The notes beneath the pieces were generated by a model that saw only the letters and a program-made list of their open reading frames with translations, did not search any database and was not told the DNA's origin. Shown one piece after another: positions 29,276 through 52,654 of a DNA stretch of 64,000 nucleotides; position 1 is the first letter of the stretch; the number at the start of each line of letters is the position of its first letter. The stretch is from a virus. The position numbers and the translations under genes were made by a program. Location: the IMG/VR virus record IMGVR_UViG_3300045988_117149. The stretch is one strand, 5' to 3'.

Positions 29276-32200
29276 TTAATCTACATCTTTAAGATTTCTG
29301 AGTTCTGAGATTTCAGCCTTCAAAGCCTTAATCTCATCGTAAAGAAGTTTGATACCTTCGATTGCCAGAGTAGACATCTTATGGTACTTAACTTGTTTTA
29401 CCAATACGTATTCTTCACCGTCGATAACAACTGTTTCGAATTCCTCAGGATTAGGAACTGAATCCTTAGTTCTTGGGTCTTCTTCTACGTAGTTATTAAA
29501 CCCAGCTGCTTCCAAACCTTGTGCAATGGTACCTTCATCTTCCTTACCATCCATGATAAAGGATTCTGTAGGTATACTGCAAATTTGTTCCAGAGTATGG
29601 GTTAACGGTTTGATGTTAGATTTCAATCTTTCATCGGAAGACTCTTTCCAGAAACCAGAAGGAGCAGTAGTCTTAGCAAATACTACCTGGTCGGTAGTTG
29701 CCAATCCCAACTGGGTTCTAGTTACTGAATGAGGATTATCCTTTCTACCTGCATGGTTACTGATAGAAGTCTGAGCAGCAGTACCAGCAGCCTTAGCATC
29801 GGCAATGGCAGAAGCTTGAGCGGTAGATACTGGTTTGTTAGCATCCGAGGTATTATCGGCATTACCTAAACCTACCTGAGCCTTGGTTACTCCATGAGGA
29901 TTGCTCTTATTGGCAATATGCTGATTTACCTTGGTTTCCAATGCCGTTAAATCGGTATCAGTATTACCTACTGCTTCATCGATGTAAGTTTTCAATTCTG
30001 TTCTAAGAGAATTGATAGCATTGGTTCTGTTAGTAATTTCATTTGCCAACCCAGTAACTGTGTTATCCAGGTTCTTCTTGTCGGCTGCAGTCATTACACC
30101 GGCTACGGTTTGTGTAGCTGCAGGAATATCGAAAGTATGTTGAGTTTCGTTTACCTGGAAACTACCATCCTCTTTCCTTTCTGTCCACCAATAACCTATG
30201 GTTAATTTAGTAGCAGAAGTAATCAGATTAATTAAATTACCTGAGTTCTCCAAATCTCTACCAAGGATATGGTCAGGGAAACTGTTAATCTTAGCCGTAA
30301 TTGCATTATCGGCATTAGTACGATTGGTAGTTTCGGTAGCTATCTGATTAGGTAGGGTAGTGTCAAGCTTAACCTTATCAGCAGCAGTCATTACACCAGC
30401 CTGAGAAGCTGTAGCAGCAGTAATCTGAGAATAATGATCTTGAATATTACCATTACCAAACCAACATTTGAAATTCAGTCGTACTGTACTTGCTTGGTAA
30501 GTGTTATTATTAAAATGAGATGCACCATTAGCTTTCAGAGAAGCTACCTGGTCTTCCAATTCTTTACCTCTACCACCATCGAAAGCAGTACCTGTAATTT
30601 GTCCAAGGATAAGTACCTGAGCATCTGCCCTTGCAAAGATAGTACCTGTCCAACGGAATTGGTAAGGAGGTTCACCATTGGTAATATTGATATAAATCTT
30701 ACCTGCCTCTCCAGTGATAGCATTCTGATGAGCAGCATCCGAATACAATTTGATATTCGTAAGTTCTCCCGTAGCAGATTTATCATAAGTAGCATATACA
30801 TCAATGATGTCATCTACGTATGATGGCAATTGGTTAGCCGGTACCGTACCATTAGCATCAAGAGAAGCAAAGCCATTAGCTTTACCTTTCGTAGCAACAA
30901 AGGCATCATGCTTAGCTTCTAGAGCATCAATATTTGCCTGCAATTTATTATCAAGTGCGGTATCTGCTGCGGTTCTATCGGATATCTCTTTGTCGATTCT
31001 TGCACCCAATGCAGTATCAGCATCCGTACGGGCTTTTGCTTCATCGGCTACTGCTTTAGTGAACTTAGTATCAAGGGCTGTATCGGCATCTTTACGGTCT
31101 TGGATTTCCTTGTTTAGAGCAGCTGTAGAGGAATTAGTCAAAGCCTCGATTGCATCTTTACGGTCTTGAACCTCTTGAGCAATAGCATCTGGTAATGTCT
31201 CATCAAGATTTACCTTATCTGCTGCAGTCATTACACCCGCAAGAGTTTCAGTAGCAGCGGGTATATAAGTAGTCTTAAAATCTCCAGCTTCACTGGTATA
31301 AATACCACTCTCTTTTTTAGAAGAGAACTTATGAGTTAAAGTAACATGGCTACTCTGTTGAACTACCTCAACTGGTTTATCACCAGATAGGATGATGACC
31401 TTATCTGGTATAGAATCGAACAACTTCTTATCAGCTGCTGATTGTACACCAGCCTTTTCGGGAGTAGATGAAGGCAGAGTAATGGGATTCTGAACTGTAG
31501 TACCATCTTCAACATTAGTCTTAGTAGCAGCAATTCCTACAGTAGTTTCATTAGGAGTAACTGCACCCAAAGCAAAGTTAGCGGTATTGATTCTGTCCAA
31601 TTCTACTTTATCTTTCGCAGTCATAGTACCAGCCTTATCTGCTGATACTACCGGTAAATCGAAAGTATCCGTAGTGTCATCATTCAAGCCATTATCCTTA
31701 GTTACTGTAACTGTAACCTTATCAGCATCAGAAGCTGCTGAGATTTCGGTAATAGCATTGGGGTCTAAGCCATCAAGTTTAACCTTGTCTGCAGCAGACA
31801 TAACTCCGGCAAGAGTTTGAGTAACTGGCAAAAGGTTCTTAGTTGCCTCTACCTCATCACCATACTGATTATTCTCTTGGTCTTTAGTAGAAGTTTTTAC
31901 CTTGAATGTAAGTTGAGTAGCGTTACGAGTTACAGCACTTACATCTGTAACCATGGTACCAGGCAAAGCATCAGAAGTACCTTCCTCAGCTACCAATCTT
32001 TCCTCATGGTCATTGGTAATTGCAGTGAATTTATTATCCAATGCAGTATCGGCATCGGTTCTGTCTTGGATTTCTTTATCGATACGAGCATTGATTTTCT
32101 TATCTTCTGCAATACGAGCAGCTTCCTCTGCATCGATATTATCCTGGAGAACTTTATCGGCAGCAATTCTTTCTTCTCTTTCTGTATTGAGGTCAGAAGT

Positions 32201-35200
32201 ATTCTGGTCGATTTTTGCCTCCAATCGGATATCTTCGGATTTACGAGTAGCAATTTCACTTTCCAACAAATCCTTGATGGCAGTGTAATTACCATTAACG
32301 TTATCTTGAATACCCTGGATTAGTTCCAAGTTACGTTGGATATTTGCCGAATTCTGATTTACCAAAGCATTGGTAGCATTCAGAGAAGTTAACAACTCTG
32401 TACGAGTTTCACTAACGAAAGTTCTCAAATCATTTACCGTTGTGGTAAGAGTAGTACTCAGGTTAGTGAAAGATTGTTGCAGGTTATCGTCTCCTTGTTC
32501 ACGCAAGTTCTTTTCAGCAGTAAGCTTATTTTCTAATTCAGTAAGCTTAGCAGTCATAGTTGCAGCGAAATTTGGGTCATCCCCTAATGCCTTAGCAATC
32601 TCTGCTAGAGTATCAAGTACTTCAGGTGCAGAACCAATAATCTTTTGGATAGCTGCCTCTACTTGTTCTGCATTCTGGAAATCAGAATCATTGAGTAATT
32701 CTGATACCTTCGTAATGTAGTTAGCATGTTCTTCGATGCCATCAAGTTTAGCATACAGAAGGTCGGTAAAATCATTTGCAGAAAGACCCTTGCCATCTAC
32801 TTTGTCTACCTTCTTATTATCCATTGCCTGGTCTGCAGCAGTACGGTCTGCCTTTTCCTGAGCAATAGCATTATTAATAAGGGTATCTTGATTAGCACGT
32901 TCTGTGGCCTCCTTATCGATATTGGTTTGCAACAGAGTATCACCTGCCAAACGTTCGTTCTTCTCAGTAAGGATATCCTGGTTGATAGCAGCCATGTCAT
33001 CCTTGTGATTCTGAAGATTGGTATCAATCTTTGCCTCAAGAGAAGTTTCCTTGGCAATTGCCCGGTCTTTCTCTGTATTGATTGCAGTGGTATTATTCTT
33101 AACCTGCTCTTTGAGGTCATTCATAGCAGTCGTATTGCCTGCCTCTAGAGTATCAATACGAGCTCCCAATGCAGTATCAGCCGCAGCTCTGTCCGTTTTT
33201 TCTTGGTCAATCTTGGTATTCAATTTACCTACCTCTGATTCCAAAGCTTGTTTGGTATTATCCAACTTAGCAGTGAATTCTGTAGACAAGGCTTTATCTG
33301 CAGCAGTACGGTCTGCTACTTCTTTATCGAGATTTACCTGAAGAACTTGGTCTGCAGCTGTTCTCTCAACACGTTCAGTGTTAAGGTCGATATTTACATT
33401 ATCAATACGAGAACTCAAACCACTGTCAGCATTAGTACGGTCAACGATTTCCTCGTTAATCATATCCTTAACCTCCTTGTAGTTATCACCTACTGTCTTG
33501 GTTAAGTTAGTGATGGCTTCTGAGTTTCTTTCGATATCGTGCTGATTAGTAGCGATAGCAGTAGTATTCGCATTAACCTGTTCCGTAAGTTCATTACGAA
33601 GAGTGTTAATAGAATCCTGAATGCTCAAAGCCAATTCTGAAACACGTTTGTTTACGTTATTCAAACTTACAGTGTAAGCCTCATCAGCAGTCTTTCTGTC
33701 GGCAATTTCCTTATCCAAGCTTGCCTGGATTGCGGCATCTGCATCTTTACGGTCTTGGATTTCTTTGTTCAAGTTATCCTTAACTACATTAAGAGCAGTA
33801 TCACCAGCAGTGGATTTATTGTCGATATATTCTTTCAGTTTAGTTTCAAGAGCAGTATCTGCAGCAATTCGGTCTGCCTTTTCTGTAGCTACCTCTGCAC
33901 TGTTTGCAGCATCACCAGCAATACGGTCTTCCTTCTCTTGGTTAATCTCCTCGGTTAAGGCAGCTAACTTCTTGGTGATAGTTGTTGCAAAGTTGGGGTC
34001 ATTACCAAGAGCATCGGCAATTTCCTTCAAGGTATCAAGTACCTCGGGAGCAGAACCTACAATTTTCTGAATAGCAGCATTAACTTGCTCTTCATTTTGG
34101 AAGTCCATATCATTAATCAACTCAGAGAGCTTGGTAATGTAATTGGCTTTCTCTTCAATACCGTCAAGCTTAGCTTTGAGAATATCCGTAAAGTCATTCT
34201 TAGTCAATGAATAACCTTCACGTTTATCTACCTTCTTATTATCAAGAGCAGTATCTGCATCTTTACGAGCCTGAGTTTCAGTAGCAATAGCTTCTAACAG
34301 TTGAGTCTTATCTGCTTGACCTTGGAGTTTTACATCCTCAATCTTATGATCCAAAACCAAATCCTGAGCAGCACGAGCAGTAGCTTCGGAATCAATATTA
34401 TTCTGAAGTACCTGGTCTGCAGAGGTACGAGCTTGAGCCTCTTGGTCAATTTTACCTTGCAAAGCATTATCTGCATTAGTACGGTCAGCTACCTCTTTAG
34501 AAATTTCATTATGAAGAACTTGGTCCTCAGAATGACGGTCTACTGCTTCCTGGTCAATCTTACTCTGCAATGCTTGAGTATCTGATTGGCGATTAGTGAT
34601 TTCCTCATTAATCTTAGAATCCAGAATAGTATCTGCATTCGTACGATTAGATACCTCTTCAGCAATCTTGGCTTCAAGAGCAGCCTTGTCATTGATGTGA
34701 AGAGTTTTGAGTTCATTTACACTTTCCTTGATTTCGTTATCGGCAGCGATACGTTCGTCCTTTTCTTGTTGGATGAGGCTCTTAAGTTCATCCTTAATCT
34801 CATCGCTCTTATCGTTTACCTTATCATTGAGATCCTTAATGTCTTCGGCATTTTTATCTGCCTTAGCTTCTACCCGAGCAATATCAGCTTTCAAGTCTGC
34901 CTTAACAGTATCAATTTTGTTGATTAACTGTTCAGCAGCATATTTCAAGTTATCATCTACCGCAGCAATAGCAGCACCCAATGCAGCTTCTGCTTCCTTA
35001 GCACGACTTACTTCCTCGCTAAGAGAAGTACGAAGCTCGGTAAGTTTATTTGTGATAGTTGTTGCAAAGTTGGGGTCATTGCCCAAGGCTTCTGCCAACT
35101 CCTTAAGAGTATCAAGAGCATCATCAGCACCATCAACCAGGTCACTGATTGCCTTCTTAACATCCTCTTCAGTTTGGAACTTGAGATCATTTTCAAGCTC

Positions 35201-35446
35201 TGAAACTTTAGTGATGTAGTTTGCTTTCTCCTCGATTCCATCCAACTTAGCCTTAAGCTCGTCGGTAAAATCGTTTTTAGATAAGCCATAACCTTCTTTC
35301 TTATCTACCTTATCCTTGATAGAAAGTACGAAGGCCCAGAACTCATTAATAGTTCCGGCAAAGCCAGCACGAACAAAGTCATCATAGTAACCTTGTAACA
35401 ACCGCTGGTCAATTTCTTCGCAGGTATAATACTTACTTACATACAT
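29276..35446 (-). CDS. giant tail fibre (2056 aa) with triplicated module, coiled coils, GVM(S/T)AADK repeats and a C-terminal S74 intramolecular chaperone
   Basis: LDTLKE(L/I)A(E/D/K)ALG(N/D)DPNFA occurs three times. At least five (T/Q)xAGVM(S/T)AADK(V/K)xLD repeats. SDERLKSNIKPL lies near the C-terminus. Confidence 0.85.
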   Translation of the reverse strand: MYVSKYYTCEEIDQRLLQGYYDDFVRAGFAGTINEFWAFVLSIKDKVDKKEGYGLSKNDFTDELKAKLDGIEEKANYITKVSELENDLKFQTEEDVKKAISDLVDGADDALDTLKELAEALGNDPNFATTITNKLTELRTSLSEEVSRAKEAEAALGAAIAAVDDNLKYAAEQLINKIDTVKADLKADIARVEAKADKNAEDIKDLNDKVNDKSDEIKDELKSLIQQEKDERIAADNEIKESVNELKTLHINDKAALEAKIAEEVSNRTNADTILDSKINEEITNRQSDTQALQSKIDQEAVDRHSEDQVLHNEISKEVADRTNADNALQGKIDQEAQARTSADQVLQNNIDSEATARAAQDLVLDHKIEDVKLQGQADKTQLLEAIATETQARKDADTALDNKKVDKREGYSLTKNDFTDILKAKLDGIEEKANYITKLSELINDMDFQNEEQVNAAIQKIVGSAPEVLDTLKEIADALGNDPNFATTITKKLAALTEEINQEKEDRIAGDAANSAEVATEKADRIAADTALETKLKEYIDNKSTAGDTALNVVKDNLNKEIQDRKDADAAIQASLDKEIADRKTADEAYTVSLNNVNKRVSELALSIQDSINTLRNELTEQVNANTTAIATNQHDIERNSEAITNLTKTVGDNYKEVKDMINEEIVDRTNADSGLSSRIDNVNIDLNTERVERTAADQVLQVNLDKEVADRTAADKALSTEFTAKLDNTKQALESEVGKLNTKIDQEKTDRAAADTALGARIDTLEAGNTTAMNDLKEQVKNNTTAINTEKDRAIAKETSLEAKIDTNLQNHKDDMAAINQDILTEKNERLAGDTLLQTNIDKEATERANQDTLINNAIAQEKADRTAADQAMDNKKVDKVDGKGLSANDFTDLLYAKLDGIEEHANYITKVSELLNDSDFQNAEQVEAAIQKIIGSAPEVLDTLAEIAKALGDDPNFAATMTAKLTELENKLTAEKNLREQGDDNLQQSFTNLSTTLTTTVNDLRTFVSETRTELLTSLNATNALVNQNSANIQRNLELIQGIQDNVNGNYTAIKDLLESEIATRKSEDIRLEAKIDQNTSDLNTEREERIAADKVLQDNIDAEEAARIAEDKKINARIDKEIQDRTDADTALDNKFTAITNDHEERLVAEEGTSDALPGTMVTDVSAVTRNATQLTFKVKTSTKDQENNQYGDEVEATKNLLPVTQTLAGVMSAADKVKLDGLDPNAITEISAASDADKVTVTVTKDNGLNDDTTDTFDLPVVSADKAGTMTAKDKVELDRINTANFALGAVTPNETTVGIAATKTNVEDGTTVQNPITLPSSTPEKAGVQSAADKKLFDSIPDKVIILSGDKPVEVVQQSSHVTLTHKFSSKKESGIYTSEAGDFKTTYIPAATETLAGVMTAADKVNLDETLPDAIAQEVQDRKDAIEALTNSSTAALNKEIQDRKDADTALDTKFTKAVADEAKARTDADTALGARIDKEISDRTAADTALDNKLQANIDALEAKHDAFVATKGKANGFASLDANGTVPANQLPSYVDDIIDVYATYDKSATGELTNIKLYSDAAHQNAITGEAGKIYINITNGEPPYQFRWTGTIFARADAQVLILGQITGTAFDGGRGKELEDQVASLKANGASHFNNNTYQASTVRLNFKCWFGNGNIQDHYSQITAATASQAGVMTAADKVKLDTTLPNQIATETTNRTNADNAITAKINSFPDHILGRDLENSGNLINLITSATKLTIGYWWTERKEDGSFQVNETQHTFDIPAATQTVAGVMTAADKKNLDNTVTGLANEITNRTNAINSLRTELKTYIDEAVGNTDTDLTALETKVNQHIANKSNPHGVTKAQVGLGNADNTSDANKPVSTAQASAIADAKAAGTAAQTSISNHAGRKDNPHSVTRTQLGLATTDQVVFAKTTAPSGFWKESSDERLKSNIKPLTHTLEQICSIPTESFIMDGKEDEGTIAQGLEAAGFNNYVEEDPRTKDSVPNPEEFETVVIDGEEYVLVKQVKYHKMSTLAIEGIKLLYDEIKALKAEISELRNLKDVD
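32530..32810 (-). repeat. fibre module copy 3 (VDKVDGKGLSANDFT...DPNFAATMTAKL)
   Basis: More diverged at the DNA level; collinear at the protein level. Confidence 0.7.
33955..34232 (-). repeat. fibre module copy 2 (VDKREGYSLTKNDFT...DPNFATTITKKL)
   Basis: The 29-nt core gtgatagttgttgcaaagttggggtcatt at 33975-34003 is identical to 35052-35080. Confidence 0.8.
35035..35310 (-). repeat. fibre module copy 1 (about 92 aa: VDKKEGYGLSKNDFT...DPNFATTITNKL)
   Basis: Shares a 29-nt identical core (35052-35080) with copy 2. Confidence 0.8.
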
Positions 35447-40939: not shown

Positions 40940-42423
40940 CTTGGTTTAGTATTTTGGTCCCCTCGAGAAGGAGCCGGGTTATTCTTATCTCTTGACCTAC
41001 GAGCAGATTGGTTTTTATCATTCTGCCTTTGTTTCTTCTTGGTACCTTCTTGTGGGTCACCTCCACCCTTAGAGAATTGGTCCTCAAGTGAAACTCTTGG
41101 TTCATCCTCATCAGGAGAATCGTATCCCATTTCCCAAGCATATTGCTCCTGGCTAATGATACCAGCTTTGTACAACAAATCAAGGTTCTGTATCTTATAC
41201 TGACGACCTTGTTGGATTTTGACTTCATCAGAAACTGTAGAAGTTCCCCAATCAATCTTCATCCCCTTATTATTAAAGCCTGCCAGACGGAGTTCTAGAG
41301 AATAAAGTCTTTCCAATACATAAGCAACAAGCATTTGTATATTTTTTAACTGGCTAATCATCTTAGACAGCATTATGCCCGTTGCACCTTCACCAGTAGT
41401 GGCAGATACCCCAATGATAGAACCGTTAACTCCAAGGCCATTAGCAACTGATTGTTGATTCATATTCCAAGGCTTCTCTATATTACCCATTTCTTTGGTG
41501 GTAGAGTTGAGCTTGAATTCATGGTCATCAATGTAACCAGCTACTACTCCATCTTTCATACTATCCCGAATATTACGTTTAAGTAAATTAAGTTCTCGGT
41601 TCAATCTAGCTTCATAGGCTTGAATACTTTCATTGGGTCTTTGGTTAGATTTTTGCATCTTAGCTTCAACAAAACCAACCATACCACAAAGCTCCATGAT
41701 ATGTTTGAAGTTAATCTTCATATCATTTTGACCTTTTAAAGAATCCAATGCAGGCATGAAAGGTGGAACTCCATAAGGTTCATCGGTATCATTGAACATA
41801 CCAACATAGAAGTAAGTTTCTGGGTTCAGCTTAATGTAATCTTGTTGCTTCATCCAGAAATTATTGTTCTTCTGGTAAGGAGAATACACTCCATTTAGTT
41901 CACGTTTAAACTTGATATATTCTGGCTTAAGGAATAATACTGTTGCCAAACCATCAAGCTTATCATTTGGAACTCCCTCTACTGATATTGCCCCACTTAC
42001 AAGAAGTTGAACAATCATTTTGTTAACCAGACCATCTATACCTGCCGTATACCGAGTCCAACCTTTAGTAGCTTCTTTAAGATGTTCTCTCATCTTAGAG
42101 GCTTCGGCATCGGTATTATTAGGGAAAGTTACAGTATGACCGGTGTTAGCTAACTTAAACATATCCTGCAATGCAATTCCCATATCAGGATTTACCTTGT
42201 ATAAATCTCTGATTAAAGGTATTACATCAACACGAAAAGAGGGTTCAACTATTTTAGTTAACCCTTGTAATGATGTTATTAAGTTATCGCTATCATCGTC
42301 AACTGAGACTCTACCAGGTGAGATAGTAGTAGATGGCTTTGCTTCCTTATTCTGGGAAGAATCATTCTTGGGAGGGTCCTTTTTACGGCCCCAACCCCAA
42401 TTAAAATTGAAGTACTTTTTCAT
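40936..42423 (-). CDS. portal protein
   Basis: 495 aa immediately after TerL, with ATGA overlaps on both sides and a basic C-terminal tail. Confidence 0.7.
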   Translation of the reverse strand: MKKYFNFNWGWGRKKDPPKNDSSQNKEAKPSTTISPGRVSVDDDSDNLITSLQGLTKIVEPSFRVDVIPLIRDLYKVNPDMGIALQDMFKLANTGHTVTFPNNTDAEASKMREHLKEATKGWTRYTAGIDGLVNKMIVQLLVSGAISVEGVPNDKLDGLATVLFLKPEYIKFKRELNGVYSPYQKNNNFWMKQQDYIKLNPETYFYVGMFNDTDEPYGVPPFMPALDSLKGQNDMKINFKHIMELCGMVGFVEAKMQKSNQRPNESIQAYEARLNRELNLLKRNIRDSMKDGVVAGYIDDHEFKLNSTTKEMGNIEKPWNMNQQSVANGLGVNGSIIGVSATTGEGATGIMLSKMISQLKNIQMLVAYVLERLYSLELRLAGFNNKGMKIDWGTSTVSDEVKIQQGRQYKIQNLDLLYKAGIISQEQYAWEMGYDSPDEDEPRVSLEDQFSKGGGDPQEGTKKKQRQNDKNQSARRSRDKNNPAPSRGDQNTKPR

Positions 42424-43922
42424 CTTGGTTGTACGATTACGTTAGTTTTTCCTTTCCTTATGTGATTAGTGATTGCTTTCCCAAAGATGTCATCATCGGA
42501 ATATACATCACCTTCTAAGTCTACATCCACTGCAGAGTTATTTGCTCTGTGTTTACCCATTGCAACAGGTCTACCAATACCATCATATATGAAGGTATAA
42601 GCTTCTTGAACGAAGAATGGGTCTTTGATAATTACATTATCATTTCGGATATCCTCTTCTAGGTTCTCTATTATCACTGAACGATTCTTGGTGGTGGTTA
42701 ACCAACCTGGAGACTTATCCATCTCTGGTCGGCTTTTGCCCTTTTTCTTGAGCATCTTTTGGTAGTAATACAAATTCGGATAACCTTCATCCTGGAGTTT
42801 AGAAGTTACTGCTAAACCAACGTCATTGGATTCTGGAGCTATCAATGCTTGATTAAATAACATCCCAGTATCACCAAGTAACTTAGCATAAGTACCCACT
42901 GCCATTCTTCCCTTGTATATACATTGTTCTTCTCCTTGCTTATCCATGCAGGTAAATGAAGAGTAGTCAGTAGCTCTACCTGTTGAAACGTCTGCACCAA
43001 TGAAATATTCCTTGTCATCCTCTGGTTCACAGAACTGCCTATACTGACCATTGAATCTTCTCTTTATCACTGGGTAATCACTAAGGCAGTCCTCGATAGC
43101 TTTTATGTCAGCTAAGTCGAAGACTGTGTTACCTGATGATAAGAAGTCACCATCAATCTCTTGGGCAGTTCGTTTAGCTCCCAGGGCAGAAGACATCTGG
43201 TTATACCAATTGATATCTCGTTCTGGGTGCATTTGCCAGTATAATCGGATTGGGTTAAATGGGTTTCCTCCAGCGATAGCATCTACCCAAGTTGAGTGAT
43301 AGAAGTTACCTACACCGTAAGGAGTTGAATTGACGATAGCAGCACCACCGGTGGATAGAGTTGGGAATGCGGCTGCCCAAATCTGAGCTGCCCACCGAAC
43401 TACTGCTGCTTCGTCAATTACCAGGAGTGAAAGTGATTCAGAACGACCGGCTTCTGATGAGGTCGGAATCGATTCAATGAAAGAACCATTATCGAATTCT
43501 ATCATTGAAGCAGAACCATATTCTCCAGTTCTACCATTTATGATTGGTGTTTGTAAGTACCATGGCAAGTTCTTGTACATGAATTTTATTTTCTTCAGTA
43601 CCTTCTTTGCTGTGGTGTCCTTAATAGAGATGATGTTAATCTTCTTGTTAGGATGATACATAGCCAACCATAGGCAGTACATTGAAATAAGCTCTGTAAT
43701 ACCAGCCTGACGAAATTTCAGGATGATGTTAAATCTTTCGGCAATGAAATTATACAGAACTGATTTCTGGAATGGGTATAGGTCAAATCTTACCTTTCCC
43801 AATACTGGGTGTATCACATTACAGAAAAGGCTAAAATAGAAAACATCTACTGAAACCCTTGAGAGGTTTGCAAGCTCTTCTCGAGTTAAAGTATTTCGAA
43901 TTTCTGAGATAGTCTTTGCCAT
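42420..43922 (-). CDS. terminase large subunit
   Basis: 500 aa. N-terminal ATPase with LKFRQAGITE (degenerate Walker A region) and LLVIDEAA (Walker B), plus a C-terminal nuclease-sized domain. Followed by the portal gene. Confidence 0.8.
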   Translation of the reverse strand: MAKTISEIRNTLTREELANLSRVSVDVFYFSLFCNVIHPVLGKVRFDLYPFQKSVLYNFIAERFNIILKFRQAGITELISMYCLWLAMYHPNKKINIISIKDTTAKKVLKKIKFMYKNLPWYLQTPIINGRTGEYGSASMIEFDNGSFIESIPTSSEAGRSESLSLLVIDEAAVVRWAAQIWAAAFPTLSTGGAAIVNSTPYGVGNFYHSTWVDAIAGGNPFNPIRLYWQMHPERDINWYNQMSSALGAKRTAQEIDGDFLSSGNTVFDLADIKAIEDCLSDYPVIKRRFNGQYRQFCEPEDDKEYFIGADVSTGRATDYSSFTCMDKQGEEQCIYKGRMAVGTYAKLLGDTGMLFNQALIAPESNDVGLAVTSKLQDEGYPNLYYYQKMLKKKGKSRPEMDKSPGWLTTTKNRSVIIENLEEDIRNDNVIIKDPFFVQEAYTFIYDGIGRPVAMGKHRANNSAVDVDLEGDVYSDDDIFGKAITNHIRKGKTNVIVQPR

Positions 43923-45826: not shown

Positions 45827-46263
45827 TTCTTATAACTTCTCAATTTTACGTACTTAAGCCATGCAAATGGTTTACGATTCTCCAAGTAGTATGGGTCTTT
45901 ATCATTATTGTGAGCTTCCTCTTCGAAACTTACATCATGATACCTCTCATTCTGTTTGTTCCAACCGGCAAAGCACATGATAATAAGATATTCGATTCCA
46001 TACCAAATGTAAAAGAATCCCAAACCAAGGATAGGAATCCACCAGAAGGATAGACCCAATGAGCAGAGAATGATTCCTAGAATCAGACCCACAATTGTAC
46101 ACTCAATCTGTTGTACTTGGTGAGTACGTTCGTGATCAATATCCTCTTGCAATAAATCCTCTTCTTTATCCTTGAAGAAGGAGTTATAGAGGAAGGTAAT
46201 TGCCTTGTAACTGGGGAAAAGGAATACTTTTGCTACCCAGCTGTTAAAATGACATCTTTTCAT
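45823..46263 (-). CDS. membrane protein with HExxH motif (holin or mini-metalloprotease candidate)
   Basis: DHERTHQ followed by two hydrophobic helices (IVGLILGIILCSLGLSFWWIPILGLGFFYIWY). ATGA overlaps with both neighbours. Confidence 0.5.
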   Translation of the reverse strand: MKRCHFNSWVAKVFLFPSYKAITFLYNSFFKDKEEDLLQEDIDHERTHQVQQIECTIVGLILGIILCSLGLSFWWIPILGLGFFYIWYGIEYLIIMCFAGWNKQNERYHDVSFEEEAHNNDKDPYYLENRKPFAWLKYVKLRSYKK

Positions 46264-46856
46264 ATCTTATCTTTGAAGTTTTCGTAAGAATTTCTTAGCT
46301 TTTGGTCGTAAGCATTTTGTGCATATCCAGGACCATTGTACTTTCTTGCAAAGCCTGCCCAGTCCTTTTCCTTGAGATTCTTCAAACAACCAGAGGTATT
46401 CATGAAGTAGTACATCAATTCTAGTTGTTTTTCGTGAGATTCTGACATCTTATGAACGAATTCATAGACATCTTTACAGCTACAAAGATTGTGATTGAAG
46501 CCCATGATCTGGAACATTCCCCAACTTGCAGACTTTAAAGCACATTCTTCGTCAATTTCTTTGGCTAATTCGAGTCTTTTGTACTCATGAACACCTCCGA
46601 GATACTTCGATTTATCCCATTTAGGGAAAAATACTGTAGGATACTTCTTGCAAAGATAACCTAAATCTCTGTCAGGGAACTTTTTATGAAATTCCTTGTA
46701 CATGATGTGACCTTCGAAGAGGATTTGAGGTCTACCGTCAGCCAAAAATCCATCTCTACCAGCTGCTTCTACTACTTGAACAGCTTTGAGTAGAGCTGGT
46801 TCTAGACCCAAGCGATTAGCAAGGTCTCTAATCATCTCATTTGTTAATTTATCCAT
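46260..46856 (-). CDS. endolysin, N-acetylmuramidase family (DUF3380/PF11860-like)
   Basis: SWGMFQIMGFNH and FARKYNGPGYAQNAYDQKL motifs. Confidence 0.75.
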   Translation of the reverse strand: MDKLTNEMIRDLANRLGLEPALLKAVQVVEAAGRDGFLADGRPQILFEGHIMYKEFHKKFPDRDLGYLCKKYPTVFFPKWDKSKYLGGVHEYKRLELAKEIDEECALKSASWGMFQIMGFNHNLCSCKDVYEFVHKMSESHEKQLELMYYFMNTSGCLKNLKEKDWAGFARKYNGPGYAQNAYDQKLRNSYENFKDKI

Positions 46857-46967: not shown

Positions 46968-47492
46968 ATGGAGAAGATTAAGAATGAAAATCGGTGCAAA
47001 CTATGTAAAGAACCAATCAACCTGGATGATTTTGAATCCTCATTTGAGATACCCCAGTTGATGGCAAAGAAACACGTTTGCTTTAGTTGTGGTTTTTGGA
47101 TAAAGAGGAAAGAATATGATGAGAAATTATGGAAAGAGTACTTCAATAGTGGTACTACCAACAGCTCAAGAATCCCGGTAGTTACTCCTAATTGGGAACA
47201 TTGGATAGTAAAACCCTTTCAAAATCTACTAATTGAAACGGGTACTTTCTCAAGAGTAAAATTGGAAGCTACTCGTTATTATATGGCCGTAATAACCGAT
47301 GCTTACCCCAACAAAGTTTGGTTTATTGATAACAATAACATGTCTCACCAGGGCACTATTCCAGAGCATCTAAGACATTTATATACTCCAAATGGTATAT
47401 ACCTTTCTCCCATGGAATGGAAACTCTTCCAGGACCGCAAAACAGTTACCTCGGATGAGATAAAAAATATGATTAATAATGCAATAATATAA
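46968..47492 (+). CDS. zinc-ribbon protein, function unknown
   Basis: CKLC...CFSC pairs near the N-terminus; first gene of the + strand cassette. Confidence 0.55.
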   Translation: MEKIKNENRCKLCKEPINLDDFESSFEIPQLMAKKHVCFSCGFWIKRKEYDEKLWKEYFNSGTTNSSRIPVVTPNWEHWIVKPFQNLLIETGTFSRVKLEATRYYMAVITDAYPNKVWFIDNNNMSHQGTIPEHLRHLYTPNGIYLSPMEWKLFQDRKTVTSDEIKNMINNAII

Positions 47493-47503
47493 AATAAATT
47501 TCG

Positions 47504-47511
47504 TATATTTG
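47504..47511 (+). promoter_or_regulatory. Bacteroidota-type -7 promoter box TATATTTG
   Basis: TCGTATATTTGCATAAAGAAT lies 28 nt upstream of the ATG at 47539. Confidence 0.6.
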
Positions 47512-47538
47512 CATAAAGAATTAATTAACTAATTAGAT

Positions 47539-47940
47539 ATGAAAAAAGAAAAGAAAGAAATCAAAAAGCTCCGTGAAGGTGATGAACTACTCTTCCAACT
47601 TGGAGAAAGACAAATCGTAGAGAAGGTGAAAGTAGAATCCATTGATAAGAAAGGTGGGTTTGCAATCTTAAGCAATCGAGTAAAAGTTGCTAGAAGTTTG
47701 GGTCCTGATGATATCTATGCAAGGTTGGATGGGAAAGATGGAAAGGTATTACCTCTTACCGAGGAAAACGAGAAATACTTTCAGGCATTCAAGGCATATT
47801 TCTCAATTAAGAGAAATTCCGAGATACTGGATAAGGGTCTCAGAAATATGAGTAAGGAAGAACAAGTAGAAGTACTTATCGAATTCGATAAGAAGTTTAC
47901 CAAGATTGTTAACAAATACTTCAACAAAGAGGAACAATGA
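47539..47940 (+). CDS. hypothetical protein
   Basis: 133-aa ORF behind its own promoter; ATGA overlap with the next gene. Confidence 0.55.
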   Translation: MKKEKKEIKKLREGDELLFQLGERQIVEKVKVESIDKKGGFAILSNRVKVARSLGPDDIYARLDGKDGKVLPLTEENEKYFQAFKAYFSIKRNSEILDKGLRNMSKEEQVEVLIEFDKKFTKIVNKYFNKEEQ

Positions 47941-48128
47941 CTACAGTAATATTGACAATTTACCTGGTATGCTTACCGTTCACAGTATTCTTTGTAAAAG
48001 CAACATTAGAATACTTGCCTCAATCACATAAGGTGCATTCACTGGTATTATTCTTATCGGTCTGGTTTTTGCTACCTTTATTTCCGATTTACCTATTATT
48101 GAAATTCATAAAACATAAACTGGTATGA
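47937..48128 (+). CDS. small two-helix membrane protein
   Basis: 63 aa, almost entirely hydrophobic; ATGA overlaps on both sides. Confidence 0.5.
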   Translation: MTTVILTIYLVCLPFTVFFVKATLEYLPQSHKVHSLVLFLSVWFLLPLFPIYLLLKFIKHKLV

Positions 48129-48424
48129 GATACTTTTTTGATAGAGATGGTAATTATGCTGGGTCATCAATGCAAGGGTGGGAGGTAATACTCCTACTCT
48201 GCCTCCCAGTTCTTATTGTATTATTCTTTGTATTCCTTCCCTTAATTATATTGCATAAATATGCCTCTAGAGAAGAAGATAAGAAATTCGAAGAAGAACA
48301 TCCGCAAATATTAAAAGTAGATTCTTATATTACCGGCTGGTACCCTTGGCATAGATATTCCCTTGCATATACCATCTCCCTTGTATGTTGGGTAATTGCA
48401 ATGCTAATGGCTTTGACTAATTAA
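48125..48424 (+). CDS. small membrane protein (two helices)
   Basis: WEVILLLCLPVLIVLFFVFLPLIIL and SLVCWVIAMLMAL. Its stop overlaps the convergent stop of ORF 48417-49175. Confidence 0.5.
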   Translation: MRYFFDRDGNYAGSSMQGWEVILLLCLPVLIVLFFVFLPLIILHKYASREEDKKFEEEHPQILKVDSYITGWYPWHRYSLAYTISLVCWVIAMLMALTN

Positions 48425-49175
48425 TCTTGATTCTAAGCATAACCCTTTTAACATATCCGTTTATCTTATTGCCCAGTATAAGTTCTATAAGTATACCTCC
48501 GGAGAAATCTGAAGGAGAAAGGTTTCCTTTTTTAACGGTAATAGAACCATGACTATAGGAACCAGAGGGAGTCCAATCGGATGGGTCTACTGTATCTATC
48601 TTATAATTAATGGCTTGAGAATATTCTCTATCACAACCATAAAATAAACCTTGAGCATCATAGAGACTCATATTAAAATAGAAATCAGAATAAGGTACCA
48701 ATTGACTACCTTTTAAGTAGAGCTCGAATATAGCAGTGGGTTCTGTATATGAACCATTATCAGACCAAGGGACCTTAGTTACAGGTATAAGTAAATATTC
48801 ATCTTGAGATGCAGGTAAGGTACCTGAAGTTACATATTGACCATTATAGTTTAAGATATAGGGTAAGTCTTTATATGTAGTTAGAGAGTTCTTATCATAC
48901 CTACCCCATATTTCTACATACATTGGGATATCTACTGCCTTCTGAGTGATTGTGATAGTGATAACTTTACCAGTAGTGGCTTGGGTAAGAGTGATAGTGG
49001 CTGCTCTACTTGAAGAACCTGAGTTTGCAGAAATGTCTACTTCTAAATTGTAAGATACTGCATCATTTGATGTCTTCTTAGTAAAAACCCAAGCATTACT
49101 TGATGAGATTGGTGGGTCATATGTGATACTTGTAGTAAAGTCAATAATATCTGACTTAGATACTTTACCATTCAC
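48417..49175 (-). CDS. BACON/Ig-like protein, paralog C. The true gene is probably 48417-49300, but its ATG is out of frame at the G9 tract.
   Basis: The track start is only a GTG. The frame is open upstream through the tract, and the ATG at 49300 joins it if the tract is 10 or 7 nt long. Motif SSRAATITLTQ...ITITITQ. Confidence 0.6.
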   Translation of the reverse strand: MNGKVSKSDIIDFTTSITYDPPISSSNAWVFTKKTSNDAVSYNLEVDISANSGSSSRAATITLTQATTGKVITITITQKAVDIPMYVEIWGRYDKNSLTTYKDLPYILNYNGQYVTSGTLPASQDEYLLIPVTKVPWSDNGSYTEPTAIFELYLKGSQLVPYSDFYFNMSLYDAQGLFYGCDREYSQAINYKIDTVDPSDWTPSGSYSHGSITVKKGNLSPSDFSGGILIELILGNKINGYVKRVMLRIKIN

Positions 49176-49276
49176 TACAGTATCTCTATATGAGTGAATG
49201 GTAAAGGTCTTTTTGGTTGCATCTGAAGGTACTGTTATTTCCTGAGATGCGGCTCTGGTACTAAATACCAGATTTA

Positions 49277-49285
49277 GGGGGGGGG
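49277..49285. repeat. G9 homopolymer (C9 on the coding strand)
   Basis: Counted directly: gatttaGGGGGGGGGattta. Confidence 0.95.
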
Positions 49286-49309
49286 ATTTAAATTTTCCAT
49301 ATCTTTCTT

Positions 49310-49933
49310 TTAATATTGATACATGTCAATTCTGTTACTAGCTATAATGTCCCCATAACTAAATCGTATATAAAACCATCCAAAATAAGTTCCGGAACTT
49401 CCTCCCTTAGTAGAGATTACCATAGAATCAGTACCTTGAGTTTGGTCTGAAGCTATGGAGAAACCACCATTAAAGGGACTTTGTTGAGATATCTCAAAGG
49501 TATCAGTAGTTCCCATTCCTTCAGTTTCGATAGTACCATCAGAATAGATATCTGATTTGAAAACCTCGAAAATCATTCTGGATATAGTTGAATCTACATG
49601 GGTTTCATAAGTTTCTGTGTTGGCATCATAGATATAGTTTCCATTATCCGGATTACCTACACAGAAATATTTAGTTGAGATTATATATCTCTGAGGAACC
49701 TGAGAGTAATTAAGGGTAATCCTCTTACCGGATGCAGGTTGGAGAAGTACTATCTTACCACTTCGAGTGGAAGAGGTATTATTAGCTGGTACTGTAATGG
49801 TTAATTGGGAAGGAACCTCAGAAGTCTTAATAGTACTACCTGAGGGTAAATTCTGAGATTCCACTTTCCAATTAGCAGCATATTCTTGAGCTAAGTTACC
49901 ATTGATGTACTTATAGGTAATAGATTCAACCAT
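49310..49933 (-). CDS. BACON/Ig-like protein, paralog B. The true gene is probably 49310-50024, but its ATG is out of frame at the C7 tract.
   Basis: The frame is open upstream to 50005. The ATG at 50024 joins it if the tract is 6 or 9 nt long. Motif SSTRSGKIVLLQ...ITLNYSQ. Confidence 0.6.
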   Translation of the reverse strand: MVESITYKYINGNLAQEYAANWKVESQNLPSGSTIKTSEVPSQLTITVPANNTSSTRSGKIVLLQPASGKRITLNYSQVPQRYIISTKYFCVGNPDNGNYIYDANTETYETHVDSTISRMIFEVFKSDIYSDGTIETEGMGTTDTFEISQQSPFNGGFSIASDQTQGTDSMVISTKGGSSGTYFGWFYIRFSYGDIIASNRIDMYQY

Positions 49934-49986
49934 TACTACGGTAGTTTCTCCTGCCCCTGCAAAACTTAAATCAAGGGTGGTGACCT

Positions 49987-49993
49987 CCCCCCC
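49987..49993. repeat. C7 homopolymer (G7 on the coding strand)
   Basis: Counted directly: gacctCCCCCCCtacgg. Confidence 0.95.
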
Positions 49994-50035
49994 TACGGAA
50001 TGATACTACATTTTTCTTTTCCATATCCTTGAAAT

Positions 50036-51007
50036 TTATAAAGTGATTATTTGGTCTGATGAAGGCAATAGGAAAGTAGACCTTAATTGCCAAGTTTGAT
50101 TAGTAAATCTATAAGCTGATATACGATCACCTGGGTAAGCCATTTCAGTACTACCATTTTGTAAATTTACTCTTACACCCTCAGATTTTTTATACTTATG
50201 GACTGAGGTATCATCTAATACAGCGAAATTAAAATAAGCTGTACCAGTACTACCAGTTTGAGGTGTTTGCCCCTCTTTGAAGAAAGCTCCTGAAAAAGTG
50301 TTCAGAGGCCAATTGATTGTAAGGGTGATATCCTGTTCCGCAGCTTTCTGCCATATAGTCACTTCTCTACGTTGGTCACCACAGGTTACTAAGAGTGTTC
50401 CGGACCTTTCTGAAGAACCCGAGTTTGCTGCAGTTGCTTTAACTATAATTTGGTACCAATTAGGTGCACCTGCCATAATAGACCCATCTTTAACTGTAAC
50501 CTTAGTTGCCCAAGAAGGAGTTACTCCTACGGATGGTTGTTTGGCCATTACCTCTCCATCACTTCGAGTCATATAAGATTGAACCATAATCGTAGTAGTA
50601 TTACCTATATTAGCTCCTATGGTAGCACTTACATTCAATACACCTAAGAAGTAGGTATAAGTGAAGTTGGGTTCTTGACTTATAGGGAAAGATATAGTTT
50701 GACCAGATTCTCTCTGCTTAAATACAAGAGTATGGGTTCTGGCAGAGGAACCTGTATTCTCTTGCAGGGTGGTAAAAGTTACTTTGCAATCATTGCCCTC
50801 AAAAGCATATTTCACGCTTACCCAAGAGGGGATGCTGGATTCCATATCCCAATCTACATTAGTCTTCTGCCCAGTACTCTTGCCATTAATGTACTTGGTC
50901 TTATAGGAGTAGATATAGGTAGTCTTGGTATCCCCAACATTCTGACCTATCTCAAAGACCGATGCCCTGGGTGCAGCATTGGCTACTCTAAAGTTAAATT
51001 CGTTCAT
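50036..51007 (-). CDS. BACON/Ig-like protein, paralog A (two domains, intact)
   Basis: SSARTHTLVFKQ...ISFPISQ and SSERSGTLLVTC...EVTIWQ motifs. Uninterrupted ATG-to-stop ORF. Confidence 0.65.
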   Translation of the reverse strand: MNEFNFRVANAAPRASVFEIGQNVGDTKTTYIYSYKTKYINGKSTGQKTNVDWDMESSIPSWVSVKYAFEGNDCKVTFTTLQENTGSSARTHTLVFKQRESGQTISFPISQEPNFTYTYFLGVLNVSATIGANIGNTTTIMVQSYMTRSDGEVMAKQPSVGVTPSWATKVTVKDGSIMAGAPNWYQIIVKATAANSGSSERSGTLLVTCGDQRREVTIWQKAAEQDITLTINWPLNTFSGAFFKEGQTPQTGSTGTAYFNFAVLDDTSVHKYKKSEGVRVNLQNGSTEMAYPGDRISAYRFTNQTWQLRSTFLLPSSDQIITL

Positions 51008-51107
51008 AATCTAATAAGTTTTATTGGTTTATAATTATTGCTCTCTTGATATTGTAGTCCTCTACCCATGGGATGCCATGAGTTCTATATATTTATATAA
51101 ATGCTAA

Positions 51108-51575
51108 ATGAATATGAGAAGTACAGATTACATAAGTAAGGGAACTGCAGTAGCAAGGCTATATAAGGCAAGGGAATACCTATTAATGGATAAAGATTGT
51201 AGGAAGGGCTTATGCTTTTACCTAAGGTCAGTAGATATCCTGGATTACCTCGAAGAGATTGGGATATGGAATTTAGATACCTTCAGTATAGAAGTTCTAT
51301 GGGCCTATGAGGATTTTATAAATAGAAGTTGTATAGTGGCTATGGGAAATGTGAAAGTAGTGGAGAGAAAGTTGAATACCATGTATAGTTGGAAGGATAG
51401 CTTTGATGCTAGGAGTTCATCCAAAGAGATATGGGGAATAGCAAGGGATTCTATCCCTGAGATTTCTCAAAAGAATTTCTATTGGTGGGACCCAAATGAT
51501 AGAGAGGTAAGGGTGAAGGCAATCGATTTATTAATTAATAAGGTAATGAAGTATGGTGAAGGAAAAGAAGATTAG
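51108..51575 (+). CDS. hypothetical Trp-rich protein, member 1 of a + strand tandem set
   Basis: 155 aa. Ends ...KYGEGKED, with the next gene's ATGGTGAAGG embedded in it. Confidence 0.55.
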   Translation: MNMRSTDYISKGTAVARLYKAREYLLMDKDCRKGLCFYLRSVDILDYLEEIGIWNLDTFSIEVLWAYEDFINRSCIVAMGNVKVVERKLNTMYSWKDSFDARSSSKEIWGIARDSIPEISQKNFYWWDPNDREVRVKAIDLLINKVMKYGEGKED

Positions 51576-51918
51576 GAAAGTGTTCGAAGAAATATACCAA
51601 GAGCAGTTAGCTAAACATAGGAGAGGAGGAACAATACAGAATCTTTGTAGGGTAATTAAAACCCATTGTGTTTTGAATGGGTATTCAACTTTATGGATAG
51701 AGATTCAGCAATGGTTTAAACCTGAAAGATATGGTTTAACGGAGTTATATTATACGATAGATGTTAATACCCCTACCCCGATTGAGATGATTCCTTATGA
51801 GGATAGAGATAGGTATTATTGGTTTCCTGTACATCAGGTATATAATTTGAAGAGATTGGAGATTCTTGAAATGGAGATAGATAATCAATTAAAGGAGGAA
51901 GGTTATGGTGAAGGTTGA
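51553..51918 (+). CDS. hypothetical Trp-rich protein, member 2
   Basis: 121 aa. YYWFP...RLEIL parallels FYWWDP...AIDLL in member 1. Ends ...GYGEG. Confidence 0.55.
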   Translation: MVKEKKIRKVFEEIYQEQLAKHRRGGTIQNLCRVIKTHCVLNGYSTLWIEIQQWFKPERYGLTELYYTIDVNTPTPIEMIPYEDRDRYYWFPVHQVYNLKRLEILEMEIDNQLKEEGYGEG

Positions 51919-52168
51919 GACTTTGAAGGAAGATGGGTTTGTTAGAATCCTAAGATGTAGGGAAGGTAATAGGATTTGGTATCAGATGTGGCTTACCGAT
52001 TTGGAGAAGGGTTGCATTGATAGATATTTCCTTGATATGGAAGTTAAGGCTTGGTGGTTGATTAATCTTCAGAGATGGTATGTTTTCTTTTATGAGAAGA
52101 ATGGTAGGAGAGTTAGGGGAGTATTGGGGAAAGATAGGACTAAGGATTTACTTAGGAGTATTTTGTAG
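51905..52168 (+). CDS. hypothetical Trp-rich protein, member 3
   Basis: 87 aa; starts with the same ATGGTGAAGG as member 2. Confidence 0.5.
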   Translation: MVKVETLKEDGFVRILRCREGNRIWYQMWLTDLEKGCIDRYFLDMEVKAWWLINLQRWYVFFYEKNGRRVRGVLGKDRTKDLLRSIL

Positions 52169-52323
52169 GTATAGGCCCGGGATGGTTAATCTGTTCTGGG
52201 CTTCTTTGTGTGAGCATGTGTGGTGTGTGGATGTGGGGTACCCCTTAATACGAGGTGTCAAAATCATGGCCTACTAAAACGAGCGTACGGTTACGTTAAA
52301 TTTAACATTTAAAAATAAAAAGT

Positions 52324-52351
52324 AAGGGACAAACATTTTTATGTGTCCCTT
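52324..52351. terminator. bidirectional terminator between convergent units
   Basis: AAGGGACA-aacatttttatg-TGTCCCTT, a perfect 8-bp stem, T-rich on both sides (TGTTTTCT on +, ACTTTTTATTTTT on -). Confidence 0.65.
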
Positions 52352-52357
52352 TGTTTT

Positions 52358-52654
52358 CTAATTATCTACTAAATGATTATTTAAATTTTCTTTAAATTGT
52401 TCATTTAAACAATAACATAAGTATAGTAAAAAAGTTTTAAAAGAAAATTTTTTATAAATTGTATATTCAACTTCTTTTAAATAGTTCATGCTTATTTGTT
52501 CAATCAATAGAAATTGCTCTGCATTAATTAATTGAAAAGTTTGCACGTCAATAATAGTAGATATTATTCTATGATTTGACTTTAAAAGAATATAAACTAC
52601 ATATAAAGCACTAACAAAAACAGCTAATAAGATAACAAACAAGATTAATAACAT
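52358..52654 (-). CDS. hypothetical membrane-anchored protein (AT-rich island)
   Basis: 98 aa with N-terminal helix LLILFVILLAVFVSALYVVYILL. Confidence 0.5.
   Translation of the reverse strand: MLLILFVILLAVFVSALYVVYILLKSNHRIISTIIDVQTFQLINAEQFLLIEQISMNYLKEVEYTIYKKFSFKTFLLYLCYCLNEQFKENLNNHLVDN

Follow-up and report, generated by a model that had tools for sequence, protein, structure and literature searches.

We studied a tandem array of three small genes in a phage genome and found that two of them carry, within their first codons, a homopolymer whose length sets the reading frame. The array lies in a 64,000-nt stretch of the IMG/VR record IMGVR_UViG_3300045988_117149 (hereafter the window; all coordinates are positions within it), and its genes, here called A, B, and C, encode proteins with BACON or other immunoglobulin (Ig)-like domains. 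On the coding strand, B has a poly-G and C a poly-C tract, and the lengths of these tracts differ between otherwise identical genomes, giving either a full-length reading frame or an early stop. We believe, with a probability of roughly 70%, that slipped-strand mispairing at the tracts makes two accessory Ig-like virion proteins phase variable.

Two Homopolymer Tracts Set the Reading Frames of B and C

The three genes and all their features are on the minus strand and tightly packed, with gaps of 9–11 nt between the open reading frames (ORFs). Gene A (50036–51007) is an intact ORF of 323 aa without a tract and consists of two BACON/Ig-like repeats and a distinct C-terminal domain (about 50039–50335). 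Gene B (49310–50024) starts with the ATG at 50024–50022, 11 bases past the stop of A, and comprises a 10-codon leader, the G tract, a BACON-like domain (about 49694–49951), and a second Ig-like domain (about 49313–49693). The tract of B, switch 1, is a run of seven G on the coding strand (49987–49993; C7 on the plus strand) and occupies codons 11–13. From the tract to the stop at 49310, the frame of the B body is open, and it is joined to the ATG by 6, 9, or 12 G. With the G7 of the window, translation from the ATG reaches a premature TGA stop at 49971–49973 and gives an OFF product of 17 residues.

The anatomy of gene C (48417–49300) is similar, with the start at ATG 49300–49298, 9 bases past the stop of B, followed by a 5-codon leader, the C tract, a BACON domain (about 48939–49256), and a lineage-specific all-beta C-terminal domain (48420–48929). 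Switch 2 is a run of nine C on the coding strand (49277–49285; plus-strand G9) at codons 6–8. The body is encoded in an open frame that extends from the tract to 48417 and that a tract of 7 or 10 C connects with the ATG; with C9, a TAA stop directly 3′ of the tract (49274–49276) limits the OFF product to 8 residues. In the window, both B and C are out of frame, and the corrections that they need are opposite, −1 nt for B and +1 nt for C. The coordinates, the layout of three ORFs, and the clean, tract-free ORF of A are as described in an earlier note on this DNA, written from the letters of the sequence. The same note had proposed that a gene was duplicated together with its switch, a description that fits only loosely. 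In favor of this, B and C have in common the start context GATATGGAAAA, located 9–11 nt after the preceding stop; speaking against it, the tracts differ in base and position (G at codons 11–13 versus C at codons 6–8), and the paralogs are old, with about 30% identity.

Tract Lengths Vary among Relatives with a Period of Three

To describe the variation in tract length, we began with 14 IMG/VR loci and extended this set by contigs of independent human-gut assemblies from ENA, Logan, and JGI. The first 14 loci contained tracts of G6–10 and C8–10, with ON and OFF alleles both present. In total, we recorded 49 distinct B-type leader contexts, 11 in frame and 38 out of frame. Their pure G runs were G6 (one context), G7 (nine), G8 (seven), G9 (eight), G10 (13, the mode), G11 (two), and G12 (one), and interrupted variants were found in addition. 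The 31 distinct C-type leader contexts had pure runs of C7–C11; 13 of them were in frame, 14 were out of frame, and 4 were cut by contig ends. The subset of C-type contexts not selected via the state of C contained 5 in-frame and 10 out-of-frame alleles. The ON fraction, 22–33%, is near the one third expected for a freely drifting length.

The expectation of the earlier note that relatives would carry 5′ homopolymers of varying length was thus borne out, with ON and OFF alleles among tracts of 6–12 G and 7–11 C, as was its suggestion of up to four states: all four ON/OFF combinations were seen among the three-gene arrays. Relatives with tract-free 5′ ends or interrupted tracts were few (P0005, P0016, and P0364).

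The effect of length on the reading frame follows a three-periodic rule. With the tract followed by -AGGTCACC, as in the standard B leader, full-length B results from G6, G9, and G12 but not from G7, G8, G10, or G11; for C, the full-length protein results from C7 and C10, and C8, C9, and C11 lead to stops. In the exceptions, L004, L012, L014/L023, and L025/L067, the leader is altered or an indel compensates; L004, for instance, regains the frame despite C9 through an additional A in its leader. As predicted by the three-periodic tract lengths, the in-frame proteins come in variants with one to three Gly (RRGEV, RRGGEV, or RRGGGEV in B) and two or three Pro (NPPL or NPPPL in C).

The tracts and their surroundings are retained over considerable divergence. 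The leader peptides MEKKNVVSFRRG of B and MENLNPP of C are conserved among relatives. L012, whose A protein is at 59% identity, has G10 and C8, and L053, carrying a B type at 40% identity, has G9 in a diverged leader.

The two states are also visible in protein databases. There, C is represented by a full-length cluster of 294 aa with 957 members and a truncated-call cluster of 252 aa with 426 members, and B by a cluster of 238 aa with 228 members and a truncated-call cluster of 207 aa with 991 members. Hundreds of B and C entries (clusters P0007 and P0295) are N-terminally truncated, to 207, 252, or 284 aa. The truncated entries are probably a systematic annotation artifact, with gene callers restarting at the first ATG, GTG, or TTG past an out-of-frame tract.

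Tract Length Changes Faster than the Flanking Sequence

We compared the stability of the tracts with that of other homopolymers in high-scoring segment pairs of at least 92% identity. Length differed in 8 of 11 comparisons for the G/C tracts and in 3 of 252 comparisons for A/T runs of 5–7 nt. For a closer view, near-identical pairs were defined as complete arrays whose three inter-tract flank segments match in length, covering 2,635 flanking nucleotides; with equal segment lengths, the compared pairs are without any other indel. L034 and L038 (G12, ON) differ in tract length from L041 (G11, OFF) with no mismatches in the flanking sequence. The corresponding figure is three mismatches for L045 (G8) and L048 (G10), and six for the window (G7, C9) and L048 (G10, C10). 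Differing tracts on flanks with zero to six mismatches indicate that tract length changes faster than point substitutions accumulate.

The N-Terminal Domains Are Related and the Homology Reaches Upstream of Internal Starts

The signature that the earlier note had seen in A, B, and C corresponds to the C-terminal half of the Pfam BACON domain (PF13004). The gathering threshold is 25 bits. A exceeds it with 42.5 bits (from two stretches, the better one at aa 56–112), C does so marginally with 25.6 bits, and B stays below it with 20.6 bits; on these scores, B would be classified as BACON-like and not as a formal Pfam BACON member. Two further occurrences of the signature suggested in the note, in the ORFs at 27433–29274 and 24328–25275, fell below threshold (BACON, 21 bits; BACON_2, E 0.06, respectively).

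In BLASTP comparisons of the N-terminal domains, A and B are 31% identical (E 1e-6) and A and C 31% identical (E 9e-6), and B and C align over a 35-residue segment only (40% identity, E 9e-5). The C-terminal halves of A, B, and C are unrelated in sequence, which confines the paralogy to the N-terminal domain. The claim that the three genes are paralogs is therefore valid for the N-terminal BACON domain and fails for the C-terminal domains, which differ and are exchanged between strains. The alignment with A starts at residue 25 for B and at residues 14–16 for C, upstream of the internal ATG at 49933 and GTG at 49175, respectively. Since homology to A extends upstream of these internal starts, the true starts are the ATGs upstream of the tracts.

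The AlphaFold (AF2) model of the B type (predicted local distance difference test [pLDDT] 79.8) is a tandem of two Ig-like sandwiches, in which residues 3–10 and 16–22 pair as strands and the loop connecting them contains the Gly tract. The C-type model is weaker (pLDDT 63) and all-beta. The Pfam BACON matches of A and C (with B just below), the N-terminal homology in BLASTP, and the tandem Ig-like model of B together agree with the related folds that the earlier note had expected.

Functional annotation added little. A HMMER search of 1.84 billion representative proteins found 18 relatives of the C-terminal domain of C, all within this phage group, and no functional lead. In PHROGs, A matches only phrog_4757, of unknown function, and B and C have no match. 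Judged from the sequences, the N-termini of A, B, and C are not signal peptide-like. Gene A has more than 1,400 database homologs, including one 90%-identity cluster of 2,297 members, which implies that the lineage is very prevalent. In a second homolog search, the 120 homologs of gene A listed were all above 93% identity and useless for a deep alignment. Among GenBank phages, there was no DNA match for 47000–52500 and no protein match for gene A, and GTDB representative genomes contained no relative of gene A and hence no host or prophage clue.

Evidence against Phase Variation and Alternative Explanations

Several observations weigh against slipped-strand phase variation or the virion role that we attach to it. 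G7/C7 matches are no more frequent than in dinucleotide-preserving shuffles (4 observed, mean of 3.95), and a 9-run arises in 16 of 100 such shuffles. Every sequence is a consensus assembly, and long G/C runs are prone to error. In three ENA scaffolds, gaps of 100 N fall exactly on the leader and tract region of B/C (L035:3007–3106, L037:2317–2416, and L042:1445–1544). Some alleles are interrupted yet out of frame (CCCCCTCCC in L009/L010 and GGGGGGAGGG in L027/L028). Foldseek searches of the B-type and C-type models against the PDB and BFVD returned generic tandem-Ig, BACON, or "cellulase"-annotated gut-phage proteins with template modeling (TM) scores of at most 0.4, and no specific lectin or tail-fiber tip fold. 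A, B, and C have no recognizable anchor domain, and they lie outside the tail module and adjoin a muramidase gene.

With the count-based homopolymer test against shuffles not significant, we dropped the argument that the window contains more runs than expected by chance. As the run count is within the shuffle expectation, the case rests on the features that are beyond chance: the position of the tracts (codons 6–13 in two adjacent paralogs), their effect on the frame, the length variation among relatives, and the conservation. The switch tracts are the sole G/C runs of at least 6 nt in the 64 kb, the longest elsewhere being C5 and G4. In this genome, GGG accounts for 9.8% of the Gly codons and CCC for 15% of the Pro codons, and with these codons so scarce, repeats of GGG and CCC are unusual coding choices. 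The longest A/T homopolymer is a T9 run at positions 2–10, its context cut by the edge of the window.

The length differences could in principle be consensus errors around one fixed, in-frame length. Long G/C homopolymers are hard for sequencers and assemblers, the N gaps mentioned above sit on the leader, and the G12 and G11 tracts differ by a single base in otherwise identical contigs. The gaps suggest that assemblers break at the leader, as expected if the reads are heterogeneous at the tract or in the structure of the array. Such an artifact is nevertheless very improbable, because lengths of 6–12 and 7–11 are found across many independent studies and assemblers, interrupted variants that are in frame (GGGGGAGGG and CCCTCCCCCC) cannot be miscalled lengths, the frame is restored by the extra A in the leader of L004, A/T runs of 5–7 nt are stable, and the most frequent alleles, found repeatedly, have the OFF lengths G10 and C9. 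Programmed recoding, with RNA polymerase slippage or ribosomal frameshifting yielding full-length B and C from any DNA length at a set ratio, would make sense of the predominance of OFF alleles for B, as OFF could then be not really off. Runs of 7–9 identical bases can provoke transcriptional slippage, and C_CCC_CCC could permit re-pairing of tRNA-Pro. We consider this unlikely, given that the corrections needed in the window are opposite for the two genes, tract length is not conserved in the manner of a recoding site, and the in-frame alleles have about the random frequency of one third. G/C runs are, moreover, the classic motif of phase variation at the DNA level, and the known bacterial sites of transcriptional slippage are A/T runs. 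The RNA around the two tracts has fold z-scores of −0.86 and +0.32 and no Rfam match, and a structured frameshift signal was rejected for this reason. Slippage at the RNA or ribosome level could add leaky expression but is unlikely to be the main mechanism.

The preponderance of out-of-frame alleles, about 70–80%, might also mean that no adaptive switching takes place and that B and C, being dispensable, are on their way to becoming pseudogenes through decay at mutational hot spots. Deletions and rearrangements of the array are frequent, leaving A-only remnants (L029–L032), A+C arrays, and chimeras, and some out-of-frame alleles are interrupted. From their sequences, interrupted tracts look like locked alleles, and the CCCCCTCCC and GGGGGGAGGG copies like locked-OFF or decaying ones. 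As a general explanation, decay appears quite improbable: the downstream frames are intact, the compared arrays being free of further stops and indels over 2.6 kb; the tracts are kept at 40–59% protein identity, though rare codons are easily lost; three different ON lengths of B exist; and the ON fraction fits free switching and not one-way decay. It is, finally, hardly credible that the true starts lie downstream of the tracts (at ATG 49933, GTG 49175, or a TTG in some relatives) and that the run, in a short upstream ORF or 5′ untranslated region, at most tunes translation. Gene callers do choose such starts, as seen in the clusters of 207, 252, and 284 aa, and a TTG codon stands right after the tract in a second C type. 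However, both the homology to the BACON domain of A and the predicted beta-strands begin before the internal starts, the body frame has no stop between these and the tract, the leaders MEKKNVVSFRRG and MENLNPP are conserved, and the upstream ATG stands 9–11 nt past the previous stop.

A Model for Switching and Its Possible Function

Under slipped-strand phase variation, the DNA polymerase would slip on the poly-G of B and the poly-C of C during replication, adding or removing bases. In-frame lengths (G6, G9, or G12 in B and C7 or C10 in C) would produce the full-length protein with one to three Gly or two to three Pro in an N-terminal loop, and out-of-frame lengths a peptide of 8–20 residues. 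The two switches would act independently and A would always be made, so that a phage population would be a mixture of up to four protein repertoires. From the comparison of assembled sequences, we infer that the slippage would occur at a high rate and reversibly within one population.

The Ig-like make-up of the proteins and the strain-to-strain exchange of their domains, typical of exposed virion proteins, suggest a role for B and C at the virion surface. A, B, and C would accordingly be displayed on the virion, and B and C may be optional surface adhesins or decoration proteins whose variation would diversify adherence to mucus, glycocalyx, or the bacterial surface. The data would fit equally well with a role in adsorption to phase-variable Bacteroidota capsules. 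Phage K1F displaying BACON/Ig proteins of related phages, which are among the most prevalent in the gut, acquires adherence to epithelium and mucus (PMC13370021); the study makes no mention of homopolymers or phase variation. A more specific reading, which we regard as speculative and rather doubtful, is that the switches are contingency loci aimed at the mammalian gut side and, on top of recombinational shuffling, by stochastic changes in the Ig-like proteins decorating the particle, hedge states of mucus and epithelial adherence or help the phage to escape mucosal antibody directed at an immunogenic decoration protein. If true, a virus of bacteria would here be using phase variation to alter both antigenicity and adhesion.

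Recombination Adds a Second Layer of Variation

The array is a rearrangement hot spot, and relatives differ also in its gene content and domain composition. In several strains, the C-terminal domain of B is swapped for unrelated sequence. B is cleanly deleted in L047, and in L005–L007 and L033, it is deleted with its leader fused to the body of C. The fused leader of L005 and L006 contains a G-rich tract (G6 in L005 and an interrupted GGGTGG in L006) followed by a C run. The A-only arrays of L029–L032 have lost B and most of C at a 9-nt microhomology (TCTATTACC). In these four samples (e.g., L029:2835–3060), the first 32 codons of B are joined to the last 45 of C, and a G10 remnant of the tract is kept.

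Chimeras occur as well. P0017, P0081, P0093, P0305, and L046 combine the BACON modules of A with the C-terminal domains of B or C. P0284 and P0285, both database proteins, have residues 1–54 of A joined to the whole of B at GATATGGAA, placing the G tract inside a longer ORF. In the window, this motif is found at 50845–50853, inside A (codons D53-M54-E55), and at 50019–50027 and 49295–49303, at the starts of B and C. Some of the rearranged arrays could be assembly chimeras, though several recur in independent samples. Taken together, the patterns point to recombination between paralogs as a second, slower layer of variation that deletes B or both B and C, exchanges C-terminal domains, and creates chimeras.

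In L001 (4230–5260; IMGVR_UViG_3300045988_075450), the frame of A is broken by a 62-nt insertion near codon 225, and the B (G9) and C (C10) of the same array are in the ON state. Unless the insertion is an assembly artifact, even the "constitutive" gene can thus be lost.

Genomic Surroundings and the Phage Lineage

Most likely, the array is a compact unit of three genes encoding small accessory proteins, each with a BACON/Ig-like domain at the N-terminus and a different beta-sandwich domain after it. To judge from the gene layout, the intergenic region between divergent genes at 51008–51107, upstream of A, presumably holds the promoter of the unit. A promoter and terminator scan of 47900–51300 found nothing above shuffle expectation, only a weak sigma-70-like match at 51079–51051 on the minus strand. 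Near the array, an N-acetylmuramidase is encoded at 46260–46856 on the minus strand (Pfam E 3e-63), and two small hydrophobic ORFs lie on the opposite, plus strand at 47937–48128 and 48125–48424, the latter overlapping the 3′ end of C by 8 nt. The muramidase and the two hydrophobic ORFs may form a putative lysis module adjoining the array.

Overall, the window encodes a terminase, portal, protease, major capsid protein, tail sheath, tape measure, and baseplate wedge, as well as a DnaB helicase, a Toprim primase-like protein, and the N-acetylmuramidase. An Ig-repeat fiber-like ORF of 2,056 residues (29276–35446, minus strand) has many tail-fiber and Ig-repeat PHROG hits, including phrog_4757, and is followed by a 613-residue ORF (27433–29274, minus strand) with sub-threshold BACON matches. 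None of the several further Ig-like surface proteins of the phage has a homopolymer. The earlier note held that neither a diversity-generating retroelement (DGR) nor an invertase is present; in agreement with this, the ORFs scanned contained no reverse transcriptase, template repeat, or invertase, although the scan did not take in every ORF.

Related contigs are 86–88 kb long and come from human-gut metagenomes, and the nearest GenBank records are unannotated "Bacteriophage sp." entries from human feces. The nearest cultured terminase (TerL) is that of a Flavobacterium phage, at 35% identity. The candidate family "Flandersviridae" has been described as comprising human-gut phages of 85–95 kb with a contractile tail, BACON proteins, a DnaB/DnaG replication module, and Bacteroides or Parabacteroides hosts (Benler et al. 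2021, PMC8008677). The phage studied here has in common with the described family its size, contractile tail genes, BACON proteins, DnaB and Toprim domain, and human-gut source, and we provisionally regard it as an uncultured human-gut myovirus of about 87 kb that is "Flandersviridae"-like, likened to that family by its published description. The large terminase (42420–43922, minus strand) is 87.8% identical to that of a "Caudoviricetes sp." fragment from Rattus norvegicus (ON840059), and the lineage may therefore extend beyond humans.

Significance and Comparison with Known Systems

Phage-encoded phase variation has been documented essentially once before, in Fletchervirus, and here the device is found in an uncultured myovirus lineage present in thousands of human-gut assemblies. 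B and C belong to the BACON/Ig-like class of proteins, which has now been linked to the adherence of phages to mucus and epithelium (PMC13370021). If confirmed, phase variation would mean that gut-phage populations are phenotypically mixed at the surface even when their genomes look clonal, that gene callers systematically misannotate genes of the B and C type as truncated, and that measured adherence and host-range phenotypes depend on the state of the tracts. Tract length in existing metagenome reads offers a testable handle on bet-hedging by gut phages over time within individuals.

In bacteria, contingency loci with poly-G/C in 5′ coding regions include Neisseria pilC and lgt and Campylobacter capsule genes (reviewed in PMC8355987 and PMC2831843). 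The switches of B and C share with such loci a tract of 7–12 nt near the start codon, three-periodic ON lengths, and polymorphism among near-identical genomes; the products of bacterial contingency loci are surface exposed, as those of B and C probably are. Unlike the bacterial loci, the switches are carried by a virus. In their domain make-up, A, B, and C can be likened to T4 Hoc in the model of bacteriophage adherence to mucus (BAM) and to the BACON/Ig "modular adhesins" of crAss-like and Flandersviridae-related gut phages (PMC13370021), all being small, modular Ig-like proteins with domain exchange; in contrast to those adhesins, capsid attachment and glycan binding are only putative for A, B, and C. 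DGRs, such as those of BPP-1 and Hankyphage, and the invertible tail-fiber segments of Mu (Gin) and P1 (Cin) likewise diversify a virion surface protein stochastically, but by an entirely different mechanism.

The closest parallel is provided by the Campylobacter phages of the genus Fletchervirus, which have hypermutable polyG tracts in receptor-binding protein genes according to Sorensen et al. (2021, Cell Rep 35:109214), as cited in PMC10877375 and PMC11959909; the latter, a 2025 review, terms these tracts "an exceptional case." In both systems, coding G/C homopolymers are carried by a phage, genes for surface proteins (presumed ones here) are turned ON and OFF by frame, phenotypic subpopulations result, and several tracts give combinatorial states. 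The differences are equally clear. The lineage and the host phylum are unrelated, the present phage being a human-gut myovirus with presumed Bacteroidota hosts, and with no sequence similarity in searches of GenBank phages, the resemblance is one of analogy and not of membership. Instead of demonstrated receptor-binding proteins, the tracts target small BACON/Ig-like accessory proteins encoded outside the tail module, and switching is deduced here solely from comparative data. The placement of the tracts also sets the present locus apart, both lying within the first 13 codons and one being poly-G and the other poly-C on the coding strand. On this comparison, the mechanism itself is not new, and the locus is a probable, independent, and very prevalent instance of phage-encoded homopolymer phase variation, a phenomenon that is known but rare.

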